DNA from: a virus
Length of the DNA: 64,000 nucleotides
Strand: one strand, 5' to 3'
Virus record (IMG/VR): IMGVR_UViG_3300036761_003779
Span: 41,879 to 105,878 of that record
A model generated the notes under the pieces. That model was not told the DNA's origin, searched no databases, and saw only the letters and a program-made list of their open reading frames with translations. The stretch's first letter is position 1, and every line of letters starts with the position of its first letter. Both the position numbers and the translations under genes were made by a program. Positions 10,278-64,000 of the stretch are shown here, piece after piece.

Positions 10278-12715
10278 GAGAGCACCCCCAGCGCGTAGGT
10301 GTGCCGCGCGTCCTCGGTCAGAAGCCCCTCCGCCCAGACCGTGTGCGTGTTCAGGTGGATGACCACGACCCGGTTGACGGCCTGGCCCCAGTCAAGGTTG
10401 CAGACCAGGAACTCGTCAGAGCCGTCCCGCGCGTAGGCGATGGCGGAGACCGCCAGGAAGGGCGGGAGGATGTCGTGGTTGGACCCGGGCTTGTAGACCG
10501 GGCAGCCGTACTCGAACGCCCACGCCCCGGGCCACTCCGAGACGTAGATCCCGTCGTCCGTGGCCACGTACAGCCGCGTGGGGGAGGGGCGGAGGGCCAG
10601 CCGCCACTGGGCCACGTACGAGGCCGGGTAGTGCGGCCACTCCTTCATGTACTGCGTGGCAAACGGGAAGCCGTCGAAGCCCGCCTCCCAGGCGGTCTTG
10701 GGGGCGGAGCGGATCCTCCGCGTGCTTGTCTCGATCCAGAGGACCTGTCCGGAGGGGTCGAAGGCGCACCACTCCACGCCGTCCTCGTCCACGGAGTAGG
10801 TGCTCTCCGGGTTCGGGGCGGCCGCCAGGAAGTTGCCGGGCTTCGAGCGGAAGATCTCCAGGCCGAGGCCGCCGCCCACCGCCCAGTGAAGGTAGCCCCC
10901 GGAGTCCTCCTGGTCGTAGAGCGCGACGGAGTTGCTCCCGTAGGTCTTCACCGCCCAGTCGTCGTAGTCCCCCTGGTACCCCTTCCCGGCGTTTCGGTGG
11001 ACCAGCGCCCCGGAGGCGTGCTGGCTCCCGCAGTAGAAGCCCCCGCAGATCGTCGAGGCCGCCAGCCGGTGAATCCGCGCCCGGTCCAGGCGGAAGTCGA
11101 TGAGGATGGCCCCACCCTCGACCGTCCAGGAGCAGCCCACGCTGTAGGAGATCAGGAGGACCCCGTTGCACCACGCGACCCGGTGGACGTAAGGGCTCGA
11201 GCCGTCGTGGAGGAGGTTGTTCGTCCCCCGGTTGAAGCCCATCCAGAGCTTCTTCGCCGCCGCGTCCATCAGCTCGATGGAGGTGGCGGTTGTCAGCACG
11301 GCCAGCTCCGCCGGCATGTCCGCCAGGAGGCCGCGCTCCGCGCCCGCGACCGCCCCCTCCCGGTACCAGCCGGCCCGGTTGGACGTCAGGCCGGAGTTGA
11401 TGGCGAAGCTCGAGAACTTCACGGAGCCCGTCCGGGAGGCGGACCCATCCATCCCAAGGTGGACGTAGACGTCCCCCTGCAGCGACGCGTGGGTGTAGTT
11501 GCTCCCAACCTGGACCCACGTGGCGCCGCTCCAGCGGTAGCCGGAGAGCGTCCCGGCAACCCGGGTGATCCGCAGCTTCCCGGAGACGTCCGAGGTCGTG
11601 AAGGTCCCGAGGGAGACCCAGGTCCCGGACTGCTCCCGCGCCGCCTCGTAGCGCCCGCCGGAGACGTTCCCGCGCCGCTGGATCTGGAAGTCGTTCGACC
11701 CACCGGCGCCGCCCACGTTGGCGGCAACGAACATGATCGCGGTGATCTCGTCCCCGCTGACCGTGTAGGCGGCGAAGTCGGCCTGGATGTCGAAGTCCCC
11801 CGTCAGGAGGACCCACTTCAGGTCGGAGGTCACGCGCGCGGTCTGGTAGCCCCAGGCCGGCGTCCCAAGGTGCGTGAACGTCAGCTCCCCGTCCGCGGTC
11901 AGCGTCGCGGTCCCGTAGGCGTCCGACCACCCAAGCGGGTCCTCCCCCGGGAAGCGCCACGCCAGCCGGTTCTTCCCGCCCGCCATCGACCCGAAGCCGC
12001 CCGGCCCGCACTCCTCCCCGTGGTCGTAGAAGCGCCCGTTGCGTGCCGCCCCCGTGTGCCCGAGGCCCGGCGTCCCGAACGTCCCCCGCGTCGTGTCGAC
12101 GAGGATGGCGTCGTAGTGCCAGGCCGCGTTCGCCGTCTCCCGCCCGTCCGCGTCGTAGATGTCGTCCCCCCAGTCCGAGAGCCCGGAGCCCGGGAGGGAC
12201 AGCTCCCAGTTGAGGGTGTCCTCCGCCCCGCCGCGGTCCAGGGCGCCGAGGAGGACGCCCCGGCTCTCCCCCGCGACGGCGTCGTGGAGCAGGATCCGGT
12301 CCGCCGGGCGCGTGAACTCGACCGCGCCCGCGAAGAGGTGGACCAGCCGGTCCTCCAGGCTCCCCGCCTGCGCGCTCTCGTCCGCCCGGGACATGAGCTG
12401 GTCGCCGAGCGTGAGCGGGTCCGCGCCCCAGAGCCGCGGCTGCCGCGGGTCGAGCCCGGGGTTAAGGAGCGCCGCCGCGTCGAAGGCCCCGGCCCCGGGG
12501 TCCGGGCCGCTCGGGGTCCCCGCCCCGTCGTCACCCGTCACGTCCAGCGGGCTCCGGCTCGCCCGCCCCGGAACGCGCTGGCCCATCCCGGCCGCCTGCC
12601 CGCCCACGCCCTCCGCGGCCGCCGGCCCGCCCGCGTCCGCCTGCTCCCCGGCGTCAAACGCCCCGCCGCCGGGGTAGGAGTTGGTGGGGAAGTTGTCTCG
12701 CTCTTGGTCCGCCAT
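10274..12715 (-). CDS. Large tail/baseplate-associated protein (lectin-like plus propeller-like regions)
   Basis: 813 aa; LTGDFDIQADF..GKLRITRVAGTLSGY lectin-like segment; shares a motif with the next gene. Confidence 0.6.
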   Translation of the reverse strand: MADQERDNFPTNSYPGGGAFDAGEQADAGGPAAAEGVGGQAAGMGQRVPGRASRSPLDVTGDDGAGTPSGPDPGAGAFDAAALLNPGLDPRQPRLWGADPLTLGDQLMSRADESAQAGSLEDRLVHLFAGAVEFTRPADRILLHDAVAGESRGVLLGALDRGGAEDTLNWELSLPGSGLSDWGDDIYDADGRETANAAWHYDAILVDTTRGTFGTPGLGHTGAARNGRFYDHGEECGPGGFGSMAGGKNRLAWRFPGEDPLGWSDAYGTATLTADGELTFTHLGTPAWGYQTARVTSDLKWVLLTGDFDIQADFAAYTVSGDEITAIMFVAANVGGAGGSNDFQIQRRGNVSGGRYEAAREQSGTWVSLGTFTTSDVSGKLRITRVAGTLSGYRWSGATWVQVGSNYTHASLQGDVYVHLGMDGSASRTGSVKFSSFAINSGLTSNRAGWYREGAVAGAERGLLADMPAELAVLTTATSIELMDAAAKKLWMGFNRGTNNLLHDGSSPYVHRVAWCNGVLLISYSVGCSWTVEGGAILIDFRLDRARIHRLAASTICGGFYCGSQHASGALVHRNAGKGYQGDYDDWAVKTYGSNSVALYDQEDSGGYLHWAVGGGLGLEIFRSKPGNFLAAAPNPESTYSVDEDGVEWCAFDPSGQVLWIETSTRRIRSAPKTAWEAGFDGFPFATQYMKEWPHYPASYVAQWRLALRPSPTRLYVATDDGIYVSEWPGAWAFEYGCPVYKPGSNHDILPPFLAVSAIAYARDGSDEFLVCNLDWGQAVNRVVVIHLNTHTVWAEGLLTEDARHTYALGVLS

Positions 12716-57314: not shown

Positions 57315-58183
57315 TCCCACTCCCGCAGCCGCGCGCCTAGGAGCCGGAGCCCCGAGGCGGAGAAGAAGGTCCGCGCCTCCGCCAGGTCCAGGCGCCCGAT
57401 GTTGGCGTGGATCGGGACCTCGTGGAGGGAGACCAGCCAGCGCATCAGCTCGAGCCGCTCCCGCGCGCCCGGCTCGAGGAGCTTCAGGAAGGAGGTCCGG
57501 ACCCGCGGCTCGAGGGAGAGGATCCGCTCCGTCGAGTAGATCGAGCCCTCCAGGTGGTCCATCCTCACGCCGTTGACGAGGTCCTCGACCAGACTCGAGC
57601 GCCACTCCACGAGCGCCGTGGCCGTCTTCTCCCCGATCCCCGGCATCCCGGGCACGCCGTCCCCGGAGTCGCCCGCCAGCGCCTTCCAGTCCCGGTAGAC
57701 GTGCGGGGAGAAGCCGAGGAACTTCTCCGCGCCCTGCTCCCCGAGGAGGTGCTCCTTCGAGCCCACCTTCAGGAGGACGACCACGCGCCCGTCCACGAGC
57801 TGGATCATGTCCCGGTCCCGCGTCAGGACGAGGACCTTCCCCGGAGCGGCCCGCGCCATCGTCCCCAGGACGTCGTCCGCCTCCCAGCCCGGGCTCCACG
57901 CCTGGTGGACGCCGAGGAGCGGGAGGAGGGAGCGCAGCTCCGCCGCCTGCTCCTCGTAGTCGCTCCCGCCAAAGCCCCCGTGCTCGCGGTTCGCCTTGTA
58001 CTCCGGGAACCGCGCCCGGCGCCCGGAGACGTTGTCCCGCGCGTCCCAGGCCACCGTGATGGGGCGCCCGCGCTCCTCCTCGTGGAGCTTGAAGACCCGG
58101 AGGAGGAAGCGGTGGCAGAGCGCCGCCTGCCCGGGCACGAAGGCCGCCTTGGCAAAGCCGGAGCCGTCGATGAGTACGGTCAA
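57311..58183 (-). CDS. 5'-3' exonuclease / flap endonuclease (PolI N-terminal-like)
   Basis: LIDG, RFPEYKANR, EADDVLGT, TRDRDMIQLV, ALAGDSGDGVPGMPGIGEKTA. Confidence 0.93.
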   Translation of the reverse strand: MTVLIDGSGFAKAAFVPGQAALCHRFLLRVFKLHEEERGRPITVAWDARDNVSGRRARFPEYKANREHGGFGGSDYEEQAAELRSLLPLLGVHQAWSPGWEADDVLGTMARAAPGKVLVLTRDRDMIQLVDGRVVVLLKVGSKEHLLGEQGAEKFLGFSPHVYRDWKALAGDSGDGVPGMPGIGEKTATALVEWRSSLVEDLVNGVRMDHLEGSIYSTERILSLEPRVRTSFLKLLEPGARERLELMRWLVSLHEVPIHANIGRLDLAEARTFFSASGLRLLGARLREWE

Positions 58184-58338
58184 TCTCGCCTCCTCCCGGT
58201 CCAGTAGACGTGGATGACGAGCCCGGGGAGCGGGCAGACCCAGACCTCGAGCCGCCGGACGCCCCAGGGGTCCGGCCGCCGGTCCCAGAACAGGCCAACC
58301 CAGAGGTCCCGCGGCTCGAGCTTCACCTCGACCCGCAT
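58180..58338 (-). CDS. Small conserved phage protein
   Basis: EPRDLWVGLFWD..VWVCPLPGLVI. Confidence 0.6.
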   Translation of the reverse strand: MRVEVKLEPRDLWVGLFWDRRPDPWGVRRLEVWVCPLPGLVIHVYWTGRRRD

Positions 58339-58670
58339 CGCGCCCTCTCGAACCGCCGCGCCCGGCGCGCCGCCCAGGCGACCGCCGCGGCGAAGGTCGT
58401 GTCCCGCTCCGCGTCCCGGTCCCAGCTCCGGGCGCACGCGGCGCAGAAGAGCATCCCGGAGCGCGGCCGCTCCGCGCAGACCAGGCAGGAGAGGTCGAGC
58501 CGCTTCCGCCGCTCCCTGGGCCCGTGGGTCTCCTCCGTCCCGTCCCCGCTCCCGGCCTCCCCGCACTTCTCGCACATCCAGCGGTAGCGCCGGCGGCCGC
58601 GGACCTCCCGGAAGACCCGCTCCCCGGCCAGGACCTCGTAGGCGAGCCGCCCGCCGCATGGCTTCCTCAC
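58323..58670 (-). CDS. Zn-finger hypothetical protein
   Basis: CEKC, CLVC and CAAC; GTGA overlap. Confidence 0.5.
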   Translation of the reverse strand: MRKPCGGRLAYEVLAGERVFREVRGRRRYRWMCEKCGEAGSGDGTEETHGPRERRKRLDLSCLVCAERPRSGMLFCAACARSWDRDAERDTTFAAAVAWAARRARRFERARCGSR

Positions 58671-59452
58671 GGCATCTCCTCCCCGGAGTGCGTCCGGAGC
58701 CCCTCCAGAACAACCGGGCAGACCTCCCGGAAGTGCTCGAGGACCTCCCGGACGCACTTCTTGATCTGCCACTGGGCGTGCTTGTCCAGGCGCATCCGGA
58801 AGACGTGCCGCCACTCCCGGAGGTTGAAGGTGGTGTACACCTCCGTCTTGGTGGCGTTCGGGAGGACCTCCCGCGCGTCCTCCGCCGGTATTCCGTCCTC
58901 CCGCAGGGCCATGTAGGTGCTGTACGCCAGGAGGGCGTCCCAGCAGAAGCGGAACAGCGGCGTGTCCGCCACGAGGTGCTCCGAGACCGGCTGGGAGGGG
59001 TGGGAGACGTCCACGACGGCGTGTCCGCCGGTGTCCAGGATCCGGACCACGCTCCCGGGCATGGGCGTCCCGATGGAGGGCGGGACGACGACCTTCAGCC
59101 GCGCCTTCCCCTCCTCCCCCGCGTAGTCGCAGAACCGCTGGGACTCCTGAGTGTAGGCGGCAATCCGGTGCCGGACGAGCTGGTGGGACATCGAGCGGCT
59201 CCCGATGAGGCAGGCCGTGAAGGAGGCGTGCTCGAGGATGCTCTCGTGCCCCCACTCGATGGCCACCTTCCGGACGAAGGGCTCCGCGCTCCCCGGCCGG
59301 ATCCGCCCCTCGCTCTTGTGGGAGACCCGGCCGCACTCCTCAACGAGCCGGAGCGCCCTTGCGGCCCACTCCGGGTCCTCCCGCGCCGTCACCAGCTCCG
59401 CGTGAGGCTCGACGACCTCCAGCTCGACCGCCTTCATCCACATTGTGCTCAT
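58667..59452 (-). CDS. thyX: FAD-dependent thymidylate synthase
   Basis: GHESILEH, SHQLVRHRIAAYTQESQR, EDAREVLP, NLREWRH, AQWQI. Confidence 0.95.
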   Translation of the reverse strand: MSTMWMKAVELEVVEPHAELVTAREDPEWAARALRLVEECGRVSHKSEGRIRPGSAEPFVRKVAIEWGHESILEHASFTACLIGSRSMSHQLVRHRIAAYTQESQRFCDYAGEEGKARLKVVVPPSIGTPMPGSVVRILDTGGHAVVDVSHPSQPVSEHLVADTPLFRFCWDALLAYSTYMALREDGIPAEDAREVLPNATKTEVYTTFNLREWRHVFRMRLDKHAQWQIKKCVREVLEHFREVCPVVLEGLRTHSGEEMP

Positions 59453-59675
59453 CCGCGTTCCCGCCTTTCCGCCGCACGAGCCGCCGGAGGTACCAGAGCG
59501 CCTTCTCCAGGTCCTTCAGCTCCGCCTCCCCGCCCTTCCGGCCCGCGCGCGCCACGTACTTGACCACGTTCCCCGCGTGGAAGCCCAGCTCCCACGCCTC
59601 GATGGCGTCGATGACCTCGATCCCGCCCAGGCAGTAGTGGGAGGGGTGGTCGATCTCCCTGCGGTTCACTTCCAT
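59340..59675 (-). CDS. DUF3310 (SaV-like) protein
   Basis: IDHPSHY..IEVIDAI..GFHAGNVVKYVARAGRK..DLEKALWYL. Confidence 0.85.
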   Translation of the reverse strand: MEVNRREIDHPSHYCLGGIEVIDAIEAWELGFHAGNVVKYVARAGRKGGEAELKDLEKALWYLRRLVRRKGGNADEHNVDEGGRAGGRRASRGAGDGAGGPGVGRKGAPAR

Positions 59676-60346
59676 CCGAGCGCCTCCCGGACGTCCAGGC
59701 GCTCGACCTGGACCCCGTTCCGCTTGAGGATCTTCATGGCGTCCCCCGATAACCCGTAGCGGCTGTCGTAGGGCTCCGCAAAGACCACGCGCGCCACCCG
59801 GACCCGGAGGAACCGCTTGGCGCAGTCCCAGCAGGCGCCCGCCGTCGTGTAGACCGTCGCGCCCGCCGGCGTCGTCCCGTCCAGCGCGCACTGCAGCAGG
59901 GCGTTCTCCTCCGCGTGGAGGGTCCGGACGCAGTGCTCGCCCCGGATGAGGTGCCCGCCGCTCAGCTCACCGCCGCACTTGGGGCACTTCCCGGCCTGGA
60001 TCTCCGCCTTCCCGAAGCCCCGCTCGTCCGTCCCCTCCGGGAAGCCCCCGGACCAGTCCGCGTCGCAGCCCAGACACCTCAGCTCGAAGCAGTGCGGCTC
60101 CCCGGGCGGGCTCCCGTTGTAGCCCCCGGCGATGATGCGGTGCTCCCGGACCAGGACCGCGCCCACGCCGTGCCGCCCGGCGTCCAGGAGCAGCTCCGGC
60201 CCCCGGTCGCAGGTCGAGCGGGTGGCCGCCAGGTGGGCGTGGAGCATGAAGAAATACGGCCAGTCGAGCCTTGGAATCCTCAGACGACTCGGCTGTACGC
60301 CTTTCCTAACAGGATCGCGCGAACTGTACGAACGGAAACGCTCCAT
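59666..60346 (-). CDS. dCMP deaminase with inserted Zn ribbon; 5' end supplied by the HNH insert
   Basis: [42 protein letters not shown]; start codon uncertain (60346 or 60248). Confidence 0.88.
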
Positions 60347-60894
60347 TCTCGAGCCAACTTTCTATGAGATGTTGCACCCAGCGCGTAGGACGCGCGGATC
60401 TCTCGAACCGCCTCATCCGTCAACTTCCGGAGACTCTTCCTCTGGTCCGCGCTGTAGTGCCGCTCCCCGCGCGGGACCTTCTCCGGTGACGTCTGGGTAT
60501 AGTGCCGCTCCCCGCGCGGGACCTTCTCCGGGCGTACACGGGAGTAGTGGACGTCCCCGCGCGGGACCTTCTCCGGGTTCCGCCGCGTCCAATGGGCGTC
60601 CCCGCTCGGGTAGAGCCCCTTTGCCGCGGCGTCCGCGCAGTTGTCCACGTGGGTCCCAAGGAAGAGATGACCCGGGTTCACGCAGCGCTTGTTGTCACAT
60701 GAGTGAAGAACGAACGCCCCCTTCGAGATCTCCCCGCGGGAGAGGATCCAGGCCACGCGGTGGGCGCCCTCCAGCACTCCCCGGAATGCAAACTTCCCGT
60801 AGCCGCTCCGGAAGATAGCCGCCGTCCAGTTCCAGCACTCCGCCTCCCCGCCACGGATGTACTTCTCGTCGAACCTGGCTTGGAGCGTCTTCAC
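60280..60894 (-). CDS. HNH homing endonuclease (HNH_3 type) with tandem repeats and C-terminal HTH
   Basis: [40 protein letters not shown]; [23 protein letters not shown]. Confidence 0.93.
60455..60609. repeat. 45-bp tandem repeat (PEKVPRG(E/D)xHY), three units plus a partial
   Basis: Units start at 60455, 60500 and 60545, partial at 60590; core TCCCCGCGCGGGACCTTCTCCGG. Confidence 0.9.
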
Positions 60895-61043
60895 CTCCGC
60901 CCCTCCATCTCCCGCCGGAGTAGCTCCCGGACGAACTCAGACTTTGTACAGCCTAGCCGCTCGCACTCCTCCTCGAGCCACTTCATCAGAACCGGGGGGA
61001 GCCACGCAAATAGCTTCTCGATGTTCTTCTTTGGTCTTGTCAT
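60891..61043 (-). CDS. Ribbon-helix-helix (CopG-like) repressor, leaderless
   Basis: [46 protein letters not shown]; GTGA coupling to the HNH gene. Confidence 0.85.
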
Positions 61044-61078
61044 GAACCTATTATAGATACCTAGACAGGTTCTGTAAA
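61044..61078 (-). promoter_or_regulatory. Near-consensus sigma70 promoter TTTACA-N17-TATAAT with GAACCT/AGGTTC inverted operator
   Basis: -35 at 61073-61078, -10 at 61050-61055, ATG 6 nt later; inverted arms at 61044-61049 and 61067-61072. Confidence 0.85.
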
Positions 61079-61100
61079 GAAACGGAAGACGTTCATCTTC
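61076..61100 (-). terminator. Possible weak intrinsic terminator at the upstream edge of the insert
   Basis: GAAGAU-GAAC-GUCUUC hairpin followed by CGUUUCUUU. Confidence 0.4.
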
Positions 61101-61106
61101 AGAGGG

Positions 61107-61286
61107 CAGTCGCGGAACCCGGAGCCGCGCCTCCTCCCGCCCGCGCCTCCGCGCCTCGTCCAGGGCCAGCCGGACGGACTCCACGCTCCCGAGGTTGACC
61201 ATCAGGGTCCAGGGCGCCTCCGGTTTGGACGCCCCGCGCATGTTCGCGCCCGTCCGCGGGTCGTCCGAGAAGTCGGTTTCGCTCAT
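61107..61286 (-). pseudogene. Displaced original N-terminus of the dCMP deaminase, reading in frame into the RHH gene
   Basis: MSETDFSDD...EEARLRVPRL, then AT-rich promoter DNA with no stop. Confidence 0.55.
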
Positions 61287-61831
61287 TCCACGTCCTCCAC
61301 GACGTTGTCCGCGGTTGCCGCGGCGCGCCAGATCTCCAGGTCCAGCCCCCGAGGGGTCTTCCCGGCCGCCTCCGCCTCCCGCAGGTAGATGGCCTCCAGC
61401 GCCCCGTAGAGGCGCCCGGAACCTGGTGGGGTACTAGGAGTCGGGTGCCCGCGCTCACGTAACCAGCGGAGCACGTGGCGGTCCAGGACAGCGTATTTCT
61501 CCCACGGCCGGGTCCAGGTCACGAAGAAGCGGCTCGTCTTGGGCCCAATCCCCGGGATCCGCTCCAGCTCCTCCGGGGTGACCGCGAAGAGGTCCAGCCC
61601 CGCCTCCCGGAGCGCCCGGCACGCGGCCTCCAGCTTCCCGTAGTTGCCCGTGCGGGCGGCCCGGAGGAAGGGTCCCGGCTCCCCGACCCCGAGGAACAGG
61701 ATGGGGATCCGGAGGCAGCCGCGCGGGATGACCTCCTGGAGCCGCTTGACCGCCCCGTTGGCGAACCGCGCGGACTTCCCGGCCACGACAAGGGCGTAGA
61801 CCAGCCGCCACTCGAGCTGAGCGCGGGTCAC
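61283..61831 (-). CDS. HhH-GPD / Ogg-like N-glycosylase/DNA lyase
   Basis: LERIPGIGPKTSRFF, YAVLDRHVLRWL, YGALE, LDLEIW. Confidence 0.8.
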   Translation of the reverse strand: MTRAQLEWRLVYALVVAGKSARFANGAVKRLQEVIPRGCLRIPILFLGVGEPGPFLRAARTGNYGKLEAACRALREAGLDLFAVTPEELERIPGIGPKTSRFFVTWTRPWEKYAVLDRHVLRWLRERGHPTPSTPPGSGRLYGALEAIYLREAEAAGKTPRGLDLEIWRAAATADNVVEDVE

Positions 61832-62046
61832 CGGCACCTGCCCCTCCGGCAGTCCCGGGAGGCGCACTCCCGGTCTTGCCGGCAAACCGCGCCCGGCGCC
61901 CAGCCCCTCGGCGCCTCGCAGCGTCCGCGCCGACAGTCCCGGGAGGCGCACTCCCGGCGGTGCTCGCAGGGCGCGCCGGCGGGCTTCTCCCAGGCGAGCC
62001 CGGGAGCGGGGAGGAGGAGCAGCGCGGCGAGGAGGGCCGGCCTCAC
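61828..62046 (-). CDS. Small secreted Cys-rich two-repeat protein
   Basis: Signal-like RPALLAALLLLPAPGLA; two G..C....EC.SRDCRRGRC units; exact 24-bp repeat at 61850-61873 and 61934-61957. Confidence 0.7.
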   Translation of the reverse strand: MRPALLAALLLLPAPGLAWEKPAGAPCEHRRECASRDCRRGRCEAPRGWAPGAVCRQDRECASRDCRRGRCR

Positions 62047-62315
62047 GGCCGCGCCTCCCCCCGCTTCCGGGCGTTCATGGCGGCCCGGCACTCGTGGCAG
62101 TTCGGCTGAAGGTCGATCACGCCGTCCCCCATGTGCCGGAGCCCAACGCGCCCGACCGCCTTGGGGCGCCGGCAGCCCTGGCAGTAGACCTTCACGCGCG
62201 CCTCCGTCCCGCCGCCCGGGGTCTCCCGGAAGGTCTCCAGGAAGCGCAGGGAGATCTCGACGTCCCCGACGTGGATGCTGGTCCCCTCGACCCGGATCTC
62301 CGGTTTTCTACTCAT
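62043..62315 (-). CDS. Zn-finger hypothetical protein
   Basis: CQGC..CHEC. Confidence 0.55.
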   Translation of the reverse strand: MSRKPEIRVEGTSIHVGDVEISLRFLETFRETPGGGTEARVKVYCQGCRRPKAVGRVGLRHMGDGVIDLQPNCHECRAAMNARKRGEARP

Positions 62316-62793
62316 CCTTGTCCTCCTCCGGCTCGAACTCGGCCGCGACCCACGCGCAGTCCTCCTGGATGCCCTCGAGGCGCCCCAGCGTCCCGGGGAG
62401 GCGGTCCTCCCCGTCCTCATGCCTCCGGACCGCCCGGGCCATCTCCGCGTGCGCGAAGGTCCCGAGGGTGGCCCCGAAGACCAGCGCGCGCTCCCCCATC
62501 ACGCGGCACGTCAGGCGCGCCGCCTGGACCGTCTCGTGCTCCTCCGCGGTGAGCGCCGGGTTCACCTCGCGGACCTTCTCCGCCGCCCGGAGGAGGCTGC
62601 GGCAGGCCGCCACGAAGGTCCGGAGCGGGCTGTCCTCCGGCCCGCGCGCCACCACGGCCACCGGGATCCGATCCGGCCCGGTGACCACGGAGCACTCGAC
62701 CGCCCAGCCGTCCGCCTTGAGGTCCTTCACCAGCTCCCGCATCGCCGCCAGCTCCGCCGGCGTGAACGCGGACTCGGGCATCTTGTCAGTCAT
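62308..62793 (-). CDS. Hypothetical protein
   Basis: 161 aa, GGAGGAG SD. Confidence 0.6.
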   Translation of the reverse strand: MTDKMPESAFTPAELAAMRELVKDLKADGWAVECSVVTGPDRIPVAVVARGPEDSPLRTFVAACRSLLRAAEKVREVNPALTAEEHETVQAARLTCRVMGERALVFGATLGTFAHAEMARAVRRHEDGEDRLPGTLGRLEGIQEDCAWVAAEFEPEEDKDE

Positions 62794-63037
62794 CGCTCCT
62801 CCACTCGGCCAGGCGCCGCTCGAGGTCGTCCCGCTCGTCCCGGAGCGCCCGGTGGAGCGTGCCCGCCATGACCAGGTCCCGGACCAGGTTGACCACGCAG
62901 ACCGCGGAGACGTCGTCCCCGCGCGTCCGCGCCTCCCGGAGGAGGTGCTTGAGCCGGTTCCGCGCCTGCGCCGCGCGCTCCGCCGGGAGGAGGTCCGCCA
63001 GGATGATGTCCGAAATTGAGTTGGGGTCTTCCGCCAT
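62786..63037 (-). CDS. Hypothetical protein
   Basis: 83 aa, operon packing. Confidence 0.55.
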   Translation of the reverse strand: MAEDPNSISDIILADLLPAERAAQARNRLKHLLREARTRGDDVSAVCVVNLVRDLVMAGTLHRALRDERDDLERRLAEWRSDD

Positions 63038-63065
63038 GCTCAGGGGTAGGCGGAGATGAGCGGAC

Positions 63066-63608
63066 TCAGCCGCAGCCGGTCGTCGTCCCGCAGGTGAGGG
63101 CGTTCGAGACGTGCTTCCAGATCTGCCGATTGGCTATCCGGTCCACCGTCCGCCGATTGATCCCCACGGACTCCGCGATAACGCGCCGCGACTCAGAAGG
63201 AAGGCGGAGGAGAACCTCCCGCACGCGGTCCTCGCTCATCTTCGAGGCCCCATTCCGCTCCCCATGCGCCGCCCGCTCCGGATGGAGCCGGAGTCCGTGA
63301 CGTTCCCCGCGGACGTGGACCTGCCTCCCCTTGGCCACGCAGTCCCGGACGTTCTCCGCGTGGGTCCCCGGGATCAAGTGGCTCGGGTTGCAGCACGGTG
63401 GGTTGTCACACGTATGGCGGACCGCCTCCGCGTCCGTCGGTCCGAAGGTCAGTTCGTAGGCCATGCGGTGGGCGCCAACCTCCCGCCCGTCCCGGAAGAC
63501 CCGCCCATATCCCTTCTTGCTCCGCAGTGCGGTCCAGAGCCAGCAGGCGTCCGGTCCCCCGCTCCGGTCCACGCGGCTCCAGAAGTCCGAGTTGGGTCTC
63601 CTACGCAT
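63066..63608 (-). CDS. HNH homing endonuclease (HNH_3 type) ending in the captured RNR C-terminus
   Basis: DACWLWT..GYG..AHRMAY..VRHTCDNPPCCNPSHLIPGTHAEN; start is the TAATG overlap with the RNR stop; ends LTCGTTTGCG. Confidence 0.93.
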   Translation of the reverse strand: MRRRPNSDFWSRVDRSGGPDACWLWTALRSKKGYGRVFRDGREVGAHRMAYELTFGPTDAEAVRHTCDNPPCCNPSHLIPGTHAENVRDCVAKGRQVHVRGERHGLRLHPERAAHGERNGASKMSEDRVREVLLRLPSESRRVIAESVGINRRTVDRIANRQIWKHVSNALTCGTTTGCG

Positions 63609-64000
63609 TAGCCGCATCCCGTTGTAGTTCCGCATGTCAAACACCTATGGCAGTTCCCGTTTGGTTCCGTGATGGCGCCGCAGTTCGAGCAGGGCGGCCC
63701 GGAGTCGTGGATCCGCCGCGTCACGTGCTCGACCGCCGCCTCGAGCGCCTCCGCGACCGTGGCGCCGCCCGCGGGCTTCTCCGCCGCCCCGAACCGCCCA
63801 CCCGGGAAGCGCCGCTCCACCCAGCGGACCAGGTAGTCGAGCGGGGAGGTCACCGCGCCGATGTCCGGGTTGTCCGAGTAGCCGAAGGGCTCGAAGCGCG
63901 TCCGCCGGAACTTCTCCGCCAGGTCGTCCCAGGGGACCCCGTACTGGAGCGCAATCGAGATCGAGGTGGCCCAGGCGTCCATGAGGCCCCGGACCGTGCT
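63608..64000 (-). CDS. nrdJ: Class II (B12-dependent) ribonucleotide reductase, C-terminal TSCPD and Zn-ribbon region (partial)
   Basis: STVRGLMDAWATSISIALQYGVP..KF..TRFEPFG..TSPLDY..CSNCG..NGNCHRCLTCGTTTGCG. Confidence 0.85.
   Translation of the reverse strand, partial: STVRGLMDAWATSISIALQYGVPWDDLAEKFRRTRFEPFGYSDNPDIGAVTSPLDYLVRWVERRFPGGRFGAAEKPAGGATVAEALEAAVEHVTRRIHDSGPPCSNCGAITEPNGNCHRCLTCGTTTGCG

Follow-up and report, generated by a model that had tools for sequence, protein, structure and literature searches.

Two HNH endonuclease genes inside nucleotide-metabolism genes of an environmental phage, each accompanied by a respelled copy of the gene end that it displaces: probable end-replacing homing cassettes

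The window analyzed here is the last 64 kb of the 105,878-bp IMG/VR virus record IMGVR_UViG_3300036761_003779 (G000:C1:41879-105878), an environmental phage with a GC content of 70% that CheckV rates as complete. Within the nucleotide-metabolism block of this genome, a class II ribonucleotide reductase (RNR) gene and a dCMP deaminase gene each contain a gene for an endonuclease of the HNH_3 family, termed HNH-1 and HNH-2, respectively. Both insertions lie where an initial annotation, made from the sequence without database searches, had placed them, and all genes discussed are on the minus strand. Each insert carries a differently spelled copy of the gene end that it displaces, so that the host open reading frame (ORF) is complete without RNA or protein splicing. 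In the RNR gene it is the 3′ end that has been replaced (window positions; GC3, fraction of codons ending in G or C; HTH, helix-turn-helix; run X4, public sequencing run described below):

63608-64000, minus strand: 3′ part of the class II (B12-type) RNR gene, with a TSCPD domain; 66-70% identity to full-length RNRs of 901-913 aa
63608-63649, minus strand: replacement (recoded) RNR tail in cassette 1, encoding HRCLTCGTTTGCG and a stop; 11 of 14 codons respelled
63100-63647, minus strand: cassette 1, an inserted segment of 548 nt replacing 6 native nt, as defined by the joint in a run-X4 contig
63066-63608, minus strand: HNH-1, a 180-aa HNH_3 endonuclease with an HTH-like C-terminal region; HNH_3 E=3e-9, with matches to PHROG endonuclease families
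63066-63098, minus strand: displaced native RNR tail, LTCGTTTGCG and a stop, in G/C-ending codons; GC3 0.91, contiguous with the RNR body in the X4 allele

The RNR ORF ends at 63608 with EPNGNCHRCLTCGTTTGCG and a stop (terminal part CHRCLTCGTTTGCG), and the ATG of HNH-1, also at 63608, overlaps this stop as TAATG. HNH-1 then extends to 63066, where its C-terminus (SNALTCGTTTGCG; IWKHVSNA followed by LTCGTTTGCG) takes its final 10 codons and its stop from the old native RNR tail. Relatives of HNH-1 lose their match at residue 167-172 of 180, and the family usually ends a few residues beyond W-x-H-V, which argues that the last ten residues are not nuclease sequence. As the initial annotation had described, the two 11-codon copies of the tail are conserved as peptide but diverged as DNA: they encode the same residues, yet 8 of 11 codons and 9 of 33 nt are different. 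At the peptide level the match reaches a score of 61, compared with a 99th percentile of 47 among 227 mismatched-locus controls. GC3 is 0.97 in the RNR body, 0.45-0.50 in the upstream replacement tail and 0.91 in the downstream copy. A/T-ending codons possibly begin as early as 63667 within the RNR gene, and the left edge of the replacement tail is set by the X4 joint at 63648.

The displaced segment appears to matter to the host protein. A Cys-rich C-terminus is present in every class II RNR relative that we retrieved, and several diverse RNRs contain the tail peptide CGTTTGCG. Loderer and colleagues are said to have found, in 2017, that this Cys-rich tail is required for turnover in class II RNRs, in which case a truncated RNR would not suffice. 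As a separate observation, a phage with 57% GC (IMGVR_UViG_3300045051_000909, L125:3057-3900, reverse strand) carries an RNR ending in CLTCGTTTGCG and a stop, with a GIY-YIG endonuclease gene directly after it; a nuclease of another family thus adjoins the same RNR tail.

At the dCMP deaminase it is the 5′ end that has been displaced (L129, L130 and L009, viral contigs described below):

61103-61286, minus strand: stranded native dCMP deaminase 5′ end (MSETDF...EEARLRVPRLP); 95-96% identity to L129/L130, and aligns with the N-terminus of the L009 deaminase
60254-61102, minus strand: cassette 2, an inserted segment of 849 nt replacing 8 native nt (GGGACCCC), as defined by L129, L130 and X4
61050-61078, minus strand: predicted sigma-70-like promoter, TTTACA-17-TATAAT; 11 of 12 positions matched
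60891-61043, minus strand: 50-aa probable ribbon-helix-helix (RHH; CopG-like) protein, with weak, concordant profile and model matches
60280-60894, minus strand: HNH-2, a 204-aa HNH_3 endonuclease; HNH_3 E=2.5e-11, with matches to PHROG HNH and HTH families
60254-60346, minus strand: new deaminase 5′ end from cassette 2, with the earliest start codon available to the ORF; changes in 10 of 13 codons relative to the empty allele
59666-60346, minus strand: rebuilt full-length dCMP deaminase, 226 aa; dCMP_cyt_deam_1 E=9e-15

The ORF at 60891-61286 opens with 58 host-like codons (GC3 0.95), passes through a 20-codon AT-rich linker (GC 0.38) and continues in frame into the 50-aa RHH ORF, which has its own ATG at 61043. 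The stop of the RHH ORF overlaps the GTG start of HNH-2 in the sequence GTGA, and HNH-2 itself contains three PEKVPRG(E/D)xHY repeats and a C-terminal HTH. The deaminase ATG at 60346 lies inside the 3′ end of HNH-2 in another frame, with an overlap of 67 nt, and is followed by a 20-aa leader and a recoded conserved segment that includes RLRIPRL. The two copies of RLR(V/I)PRL differ in 7 of 7 codons, and GC3 is 0.97 in the deaminase body versus 0.58 in the replacement end. Taken alone, the peptide match between these copies does not exceed chance: its score of 45 lies between the 95th and 99th percentiles of the controls. The homology of the two ends is settled by uninterrupted alleles, which align to both copies. 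Nine viral contigs encode uninterrupted homologues of the rebuilt deaminase (48-74% identity), none of which starts later than the RIPRLPW motif. In these nine contigs the conserved core begins at R-I-P-R-L-P-W, and an N-terminal extension may be present or absent; the extension of one of them, L009, aligns with the stranded 5′ piece in the window.

Cassette 2 also contains putative expression signals. TTTACA-17-TATAAT is the only promoter-like site in 59600-64000, where 0.4 were expected, and because it ends 6 nt ahead of the RHH ATG, the resulting RHH message would be leaderless. A 6-bp inverted repeat, GAACCT/AGGTTC (61072-61067 and 61049-61044), flanks the -10 element. The 50-aa ORF probably encodes a ribbon-helix-helix protein, judging from several individually weak signals. 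Pfam RHH_1 matches at E=0.0057 with 17.0 bits, below the cut-off of 20.5, and a PHROG family of CopG-like repressors matches weakly at E=0.0068. A single-sequence structure model (pLDDT 85) has two matching helices, with the N-terminal strand modelled as helix, and its top PDB matches are all CopG, Arc or antitoxin RHH proteins at TM 0.73-0.79, but with E about 0.9. We also considered a terminator ahead of this promoter and rejected it; a short GAAGA/TCTTC hairpin there falls below the scan criteria.

Related sequences reveal the native state of both sites. We compared the window with Logan contigs from public runs (among them X1, X2 and X4) and with two metagenome contigs, L129 and L130; parts of the window that some runs left without contig cover did not count as evidence. 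At the deaminase, L129 and L130 follow the window at 95-96% identity up to 61103 and resume at 60253, skipping 60254-61102. Because they run directly from 61103 to 60253, the 849 nt of cassette 2 stands for only 8 native nt, and the sequence across the site (GAG GCG CGG CTC CGG GTC CCG CGG CTG CCC TGG GAC CCC TTC TTC ATG) reads as EEARLRVPRLPWDPFFM. In a contig from run X4, the same 8 letters separate 60253 from 61103, and in all three contigs the deaminase reads without interruption as EEARLRVPRLPWDPFF. The initial annotation had predicted a GC-rich EEARLR(V/I)PRLDWPYFF for insertion-free relatives. An uninterrupted, GC-rich deaminase is indeed what L129, L130 and X4 contain, but the guess at DWPYFF was slightly off, because its D, P and Y come from the replacement end.

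At the RNR gene, another X4 contig (about 90-92% identity) joins 63099 to 63648 with six letters between, rebuilding TGC CAC CGC TGC immediately before the GC-rich tail CTC ACC TGC GGG ACG ACG ACC GGC TGC GGC TGA. Because this joint precedes the GC-rich tail, the downstream copy in the window is the native RNR tail and 63100-63647 is the insert. The full X4 tail reads CHRCLTCGTTTGCG and a stop, and so bears the GC-rich CLTCGTTTGCG ending predicted for an insertion-free relative, on the assumption that tail positions unlisted in the contig tables match the window. Relative to this native allele, 11 of 14 codons and 13 of 42 nt of the replacement tail are changed, yet the encoded peptide is the same. 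Empty alleles therefore bound both inserts, and the earlier proposal that one repairs a 3′ end and the other a 5′ end holds. Three further searches returned no close empty allele: among longer RNRs, a protein search reached a best identity of 70% and no near-identical empty allele by that route; the RNR C-terminal fragment found no confirmed relatives among viral contigs; and 59000-64000 gave only short matches, in unrelated genes, among cultured phages.

Run X2 contains a third allele state. One of its contigs (99% identity) joins 63087 to 63630 inside the tail copies, at a shared TGCGG, yielding an RNR gene that lacks the HNH gene and keeps its tail in frame, with recoded codons first and native codons last. 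The same run also contains HNH-1 sequence, in a contig over 63258-63518 with 0 differences. This chimeric tail is consistent with recombination between the diverged copies that lost the nuclease gene, or with an aborted conversion. HNH presence is thus polymorphic at the exact site in both genes, as seen for the deaminase in L129, L130 and X4 and for the RNR gene in the empty X4 allele and the HNH-less X2 chimera. A candidate co-conversion tract of lower identity downstream of cassette 2 (86-88% versus 95-96%) was dropped, because a windowed comparison puts the decrease in the variable central insert of the deaminase rather than at the junction. Within the deaminase domain, window 59900-60110 encodes an insert of ~45 aa that is Cys-rich (CLGCDADW...CPKCGG), matches zf_Rg weakly and is the most variable region among relatives.

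The AT-rich spelling noted by the initial annotation in the copy that keeps each host gene intact is borne out by GC3 values of 0.50 versus 0.97 for the RNR gene and 0.58 versus 0.97 for the deaminase. Among windows of equal size across the long ORFs of the genome, these replacement-end values rank in the lowest 2-3%, and the replacement and native ends share 59-73% nucleotide identity over 11-14 codons. Such AT-richness requires no special donor, since almost every synonymous substitution reduces GC when GC3 is about 0.95.

Both nucleases look intact from their sequences, as full-length ORFs that keep their core motifs. Against Pfam HNH_3 (PF13392), HNH-1 scores 36.7 bits and HNH-2 43.5 bits (cut-off 24.8), and both match PHROG HNH families at E=1e-24 to 1e-30. 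The motifs AHR..., H-x-CDN, NP-x-HL and E/D-N are conserved in both when aligned with four paralogues and three other phage HNH proteins. Relatives of HNH-1 and HNH-2 in IMG/VR have full-length identities of at most 45-47%, and no solved structure related by sequence to HNH-1 was found. Altogether the genome encodes six HNH_3 paralogues, four of them between genes and two, HNH-1 and HNH-2, inside genes. Two of the four intergenic paralogues (G000:C1:5217-5690 and 10625-11080) are without the C-terminal HTH of the others and may be degenerating. In run X1, one contig joins HNH-2 to HNH-1 at their conserved core (60685 and 63530), leaving out 2844 nt; its shorter arm has 43 letters. Either recombination between the paralogues or chimeric assembly may have produced it.

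The initial annotation had suggested looking for HNH genes flanked by codon-divergent duplications in other phages, and these exist. At 108 IMG/VR loci with genes for HNH-1-like or HNH-2-like proteins, we looked for peptides duplicated on the two sides of the nuclease gene, using mismatched-locus controls. The top match (L037/L038) is Mycobacterium phage Misha28/TootsiePop, with the same arrangement in DocMcStuffins, Awesomesauce and SkinnyPete. In this group an HNH gene lies within the 3′ end of a DNA methyltransferase gene, with an AT-rich replacement tail before it and a GC-rich native tail after it. The insert of 666 nt replaces 12 nt, and the replacement tail has a GC3 of 0.25 versus 0.75, with 25 of 28 codons different. 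Phage TChen has no HNH gene at this position; its methyltransferase tail is uninterrupted and GC-rich, and it is 100% identical over 319 nt to the displaced remnant and downstream DNA of Misha28. Over the flanks, filled and empty mycobacteriophages are 84-100% identical.

Further loci are candidates, judged from their own sequence. Four (L049; L050, at the small terminase gene; L084; and L066) have the 5′ form: the start and opening codons of the host gene have been taken into the nuclease ORF, and behind the nuclease comes a start region with different spelling. L045 is another 3′ case. Duplication matches at the HNH genes near 5 and 10 kb of the genome itself and at L077, L099 and L117 were rejected as Arg/Gly/Pro-rich matches in the wrong frame, and the match at L030 as two paralogous zinc-finger modules.

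Together, these findings suggest, with a probability that we put at roughly 0.8, that the phage carries two independent end-replacing homing endonuclease cassettes, each made up of an HNH_3 gene and a respelled copy of the displaced gene end. During co-infection, the HNH protein would cut the conserved native sequence spanning the insertion point in a cassette-free genome. The break would then be repaired from the cassette-bearing genome, copying in the nuclease gene and the replacement end together, with the gene body as one homology arm and the displaced native end plus neighbouring DNA as the other. Respelling would leave the working gene without the nuclease's target site, and so immune, and would lower recombination between the copies that could delete the cassette, although the X2 allele indicates that such deletion still occurs. 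The two cassettes would be expressed differently. Cassette 1 may rely on the RNR message, with HNH-1 translationally coupled to RNR through TAATG and reading into the old tail. Cassette 2 would bring its promoter-like site and a small repressor-like protein, possibly autoregulatory, behind the old deaminase start, and its new deaminase leader may have been made by overprinting the last 22 codons of HNH-2.

Several observations weigh against this reading or limit it. The empty RNR allele comes from a lineage only about 90% identical and was taken from a contig table. Logan contigs can be chimeric, though an overlap of 5 nt would not be expected to produce a false join. In a more distant relative that has no HNH gene at this site (L009, IMGVR_UViG_3300032397_000005), GC3 is 0.36 in the RNR tail and 0.88 in the rest of the gene; AT-rich tails therefore also occur outside HNH carriers. 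Changes to A/T at four-fold sites amount to 5 of 7, as random synonymous choice gives at a GC3 of 0.95, and AT-richness by itself is therefore no proof of a low-GC donor or of selection. No RHH homologue was found beside other HNH-2-like genes. Finally, the new deaminase ATG lacks a clear Shine-Dalgarno sequence, and expression of the rebuilt deaminase is therefore not assured. Regarding L009 itself, the low value is that of the last 11 RNR codons and an 80-nt AT-rich spacer follows them (L009:1828-1968). This tail may be the footprint of an earlier end-replacing cassette, or AT-rich tails may arise for other reasons.

Two other histories are conceivable. One possibility is that the replacement end is simply the allele of a donor phage, brought along by ordinary co-conversion with a free-standing nuclease gene that lay just outside the gene, with the leftover native end an accident of one-sided illegitimate repair and the recoding unselected. 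The GIY-YIG gene directly after a CLTCGTTTGCG-ending RNR in the 57% GC genome would suit such a donor, as would the recurrence of CGTTTGCG in diverse RNRs and a direction of codon change that fits random synonymous choice. We nevertheless consider this history unlikely. It accounts for an origin but not for a precise layout repeated at 3′ and 5′ ends of unrelated genes, it leaves unexplained how 11 of 14 codons changed with zero amino-acid changes, and a unit formed in this way would, once formed, behave exactly as the end-replacing cassettes proposed above. Slightly less probable still, the cassettes could be fossils that arrived once, by homing or illegitimate recombination, and whose HNH proteins are now immobile passengers or repurposed, with the polymorphism reflecting only ancient gain and occasional deletion. 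Loss is on display in the X2 chimera, and the two paralogues without an HTH look degenerate. Yet both HNH ORFs are full length with conserved motifs, filled and empty alleles coexist in genomes that are 90-96% identical (84-100% over the mycobacteriophage flanks), and the same layout occurs at unrelated genes.

Splicing and misassembly are both highly improbable. HNH genes often reside in group I introns and inteins, and the duplications could in principle be incidental to inserts removed as a group I or II intron or as an intein. However, a search of 58000-64000 found zero Rfam families at E<=1, and the space in the inserts outside ORFs comes to about 60 nt and 26 nt in cassette 2 and 40 nt in cassette 1. 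The host ORFs are already complete without any splicing. Protein splicing is impossible, because the host frames end in stops (TAA at 63608-63610 and TGA at 60891-60893) and the nucleases lie in other frames. The absence of an intron or intein, which the initial annotation had deduced from the lack of room and of motifs, is thus upheld. As for an assembly artefact, the record is derived from a metagenome and its ends cut the RNR gene. Separately assembled Logan contigs from run X1, possibly the window's own source sample, nonetheless cover all four cassette junctions with 0-1 differences, a contig from run X2, which belongs to a different study, spans the right junction of cassette 2, and the same architecture is present in finished genomes of cultured phages.

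The closest known designs are eukaryotic. In the WHO elements of Torulaspora and Lachancea yeasts, which target FBA1 (Coughlan et al. 2020, PMC7282813; Osborne et al. 2026, bioRxiv 10.64898/2026.08.13.744650), the nuclease travels with a diverged 3′ part of the host gene and this replacement resists the element's own nuclease. The displaced end is proposed to serve, with neighbouring genes, as a homology arm (PMC7282813). Cassette 1 shares this layout, with the old 3′ part pushed downstream as a fragment and splicing unneeded. The WHO nucleases, however, are LAGLIDADG proteins, intein-derived, carrying zinc fingers and related to HO, whereas the phage nucleases are HNH_3 proteins with an HTH and therefore not members of the WHO family by descent. 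The segment exchanged by a WHO element, in meiosis, is about 400 bp of a eukaryotic nuclear gene, compared with 11-14 codons in the phage cassettes. All WHO elements described act on 3′ ends; cassette 2, by contrast, acts on a 5′ end and must for that reason bring a start codon, here together with a promoter-like site. Cleavage and resistance have been demonstrated for WHO elements; for the phage cassettes we infer them from the DNA sequence.

A similar arrangement has been described in fungal mitochondria as mORF gene hybrids, in atp6 of Allomyces macrogynus and in atp6, atp9, cox2 and nad3 of Glomus (Beaudet et al. 2013, PMC3630166, citing Paquin et al. 1994). There, an endonuclease ORF near the 3′ end of a gene is accompanied by a foreign, diverged, in-phase C-terminal piece, and the native C-terminus remains downstream, closer to that of the empty relative (PMC3630166). 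Like some mORFs, HNH-1 is in phase with host sequence, namely the old RNR tail. The mORFs differ in being mitochondrial and of the LAGLIDADG or GIY-YIG type, and their replacement pieces differ in protein as well. Neither a 5′-end form nor a regulator gene is described in that work, in contrast to cassette 2 with its 5′ form and RHH-like gene.

Among phages, intronless homing by free-standing endonucleases is known for the T4 Seg and Mob proteins (PMC2988022) and for mobE (PMC2790892). Like these, the cassettes involve intron-free phage HNH or GIY-YIG genes with conserved, often nucleotide-metabolism, targets that spread by break repair along with flanking DNA. Free-standing endonuclease genes of this kind generally sit between other genes, and their immunity comes from sequence differences in flanking genes rather than from a carried duplicate end. 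Bonocora and colleagues reportedly described in 2011 that extra sequence carried with the nuclease in the T4 mobA/gene 60 cassette protects against cleavage. A later article's account of Friedrich et al. 2007 (via PMC10448857) places mobE inside nrdA of Aeromonas phage Aeh1, as 'genes in pieces'. As in mobE/nrdA and mobA/gene 60, an HNH gene lies inside a phage RNR or topoisomerase gene whose function is kept without splicing. The host protein in those cases is made as two polypeptides or through ribosomal bypassing; here it comes from a single complete ORF with a duplicate end. A full-text search of the phage homing endonuclease literature did not find the end-replacing layout with a retained displaced end, which is weak evidence of absence. 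By comparison with WHO elements and mORFs, what may be new in phages is the HNH_3 nucleases, the 11-14-codon scale and the 5′-end form with its own expression signals. Somewhat more tentatively than for the cassettes themselves, and at slightly less than even odds, we suggest that they belong to a widespread and unnamed class of phage homing elements, mycobacteriophages included: a counterpart of WHO that replaces gene ends with an immune recoded copy and has a 5′ form with start codon, promoter and repressor.

In the usual view, homing genes persist in essential genes through self-splicing introns or inteins, or else sit between genes. Carrying a spare, differently spelled gene end would be a third route in phages, and, if so, the three allele states (native, filled and nuclease-less recoded scar) would be a snapshot of a cycle of invasion, fixation and loss. 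Such cassettes would account for short duplicated gene fragments in annotations, for entries reading 'methyltransferase / HNH / methyltransferase' and for odd codon usage at conserved gene ends. They would also lead one to expect the ends of RNR and other marker genes of viral ecology to evolve as chimeras. The design matches that of engineered 'cleave and rescue' and 'home and rescue' gene drives, so that natural cassettes may give clues to the persistence and decay of drives of this type. For cleavage, immunity and biased inheritance, pairs of cultured mycobacteriophages, one filled like Misha28 and one empty like TChen, offer a tractable system.

The nucleotide-metabolism block that holds both targets consists of the class II RNR gene, three small ORFs, an OGG-like glycosylase gene, the dCMP deaminase gene, a small ORF matching PHROG nucleotide kinase families, thyX and another long ORF. 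The RNR gene is split by the contig ends, and C1:1 to about 2175 holds its first ~725 codons. The break (window 64000 / G000:C1:1) has cost the gene about 13 codons, which read RLGELFVVMAKEG in relatives, and the record is therefore a permuted, not quite closed, circle or concatemer.

Other variation is visible in this region. A run-X4 contig has 169 other letters in place of 157 nt at window 62628-62786, between two small ORFs. Beside the OGG-like gene, a 215-nt segment (window 61828-62042) codes for a Cys-rich motif that is repeated twice (ECASRDCRRGRC). L129 and a run-X4 contig lack this segment, which thus represents an indel polymorphism. At the other end of the deaminase gene, similarity between the window and L130 (870-1429) stops exactly at the deaminase stop codon (59666) and gives way to an unrelated L130 gene, marking a mosaic boundary.

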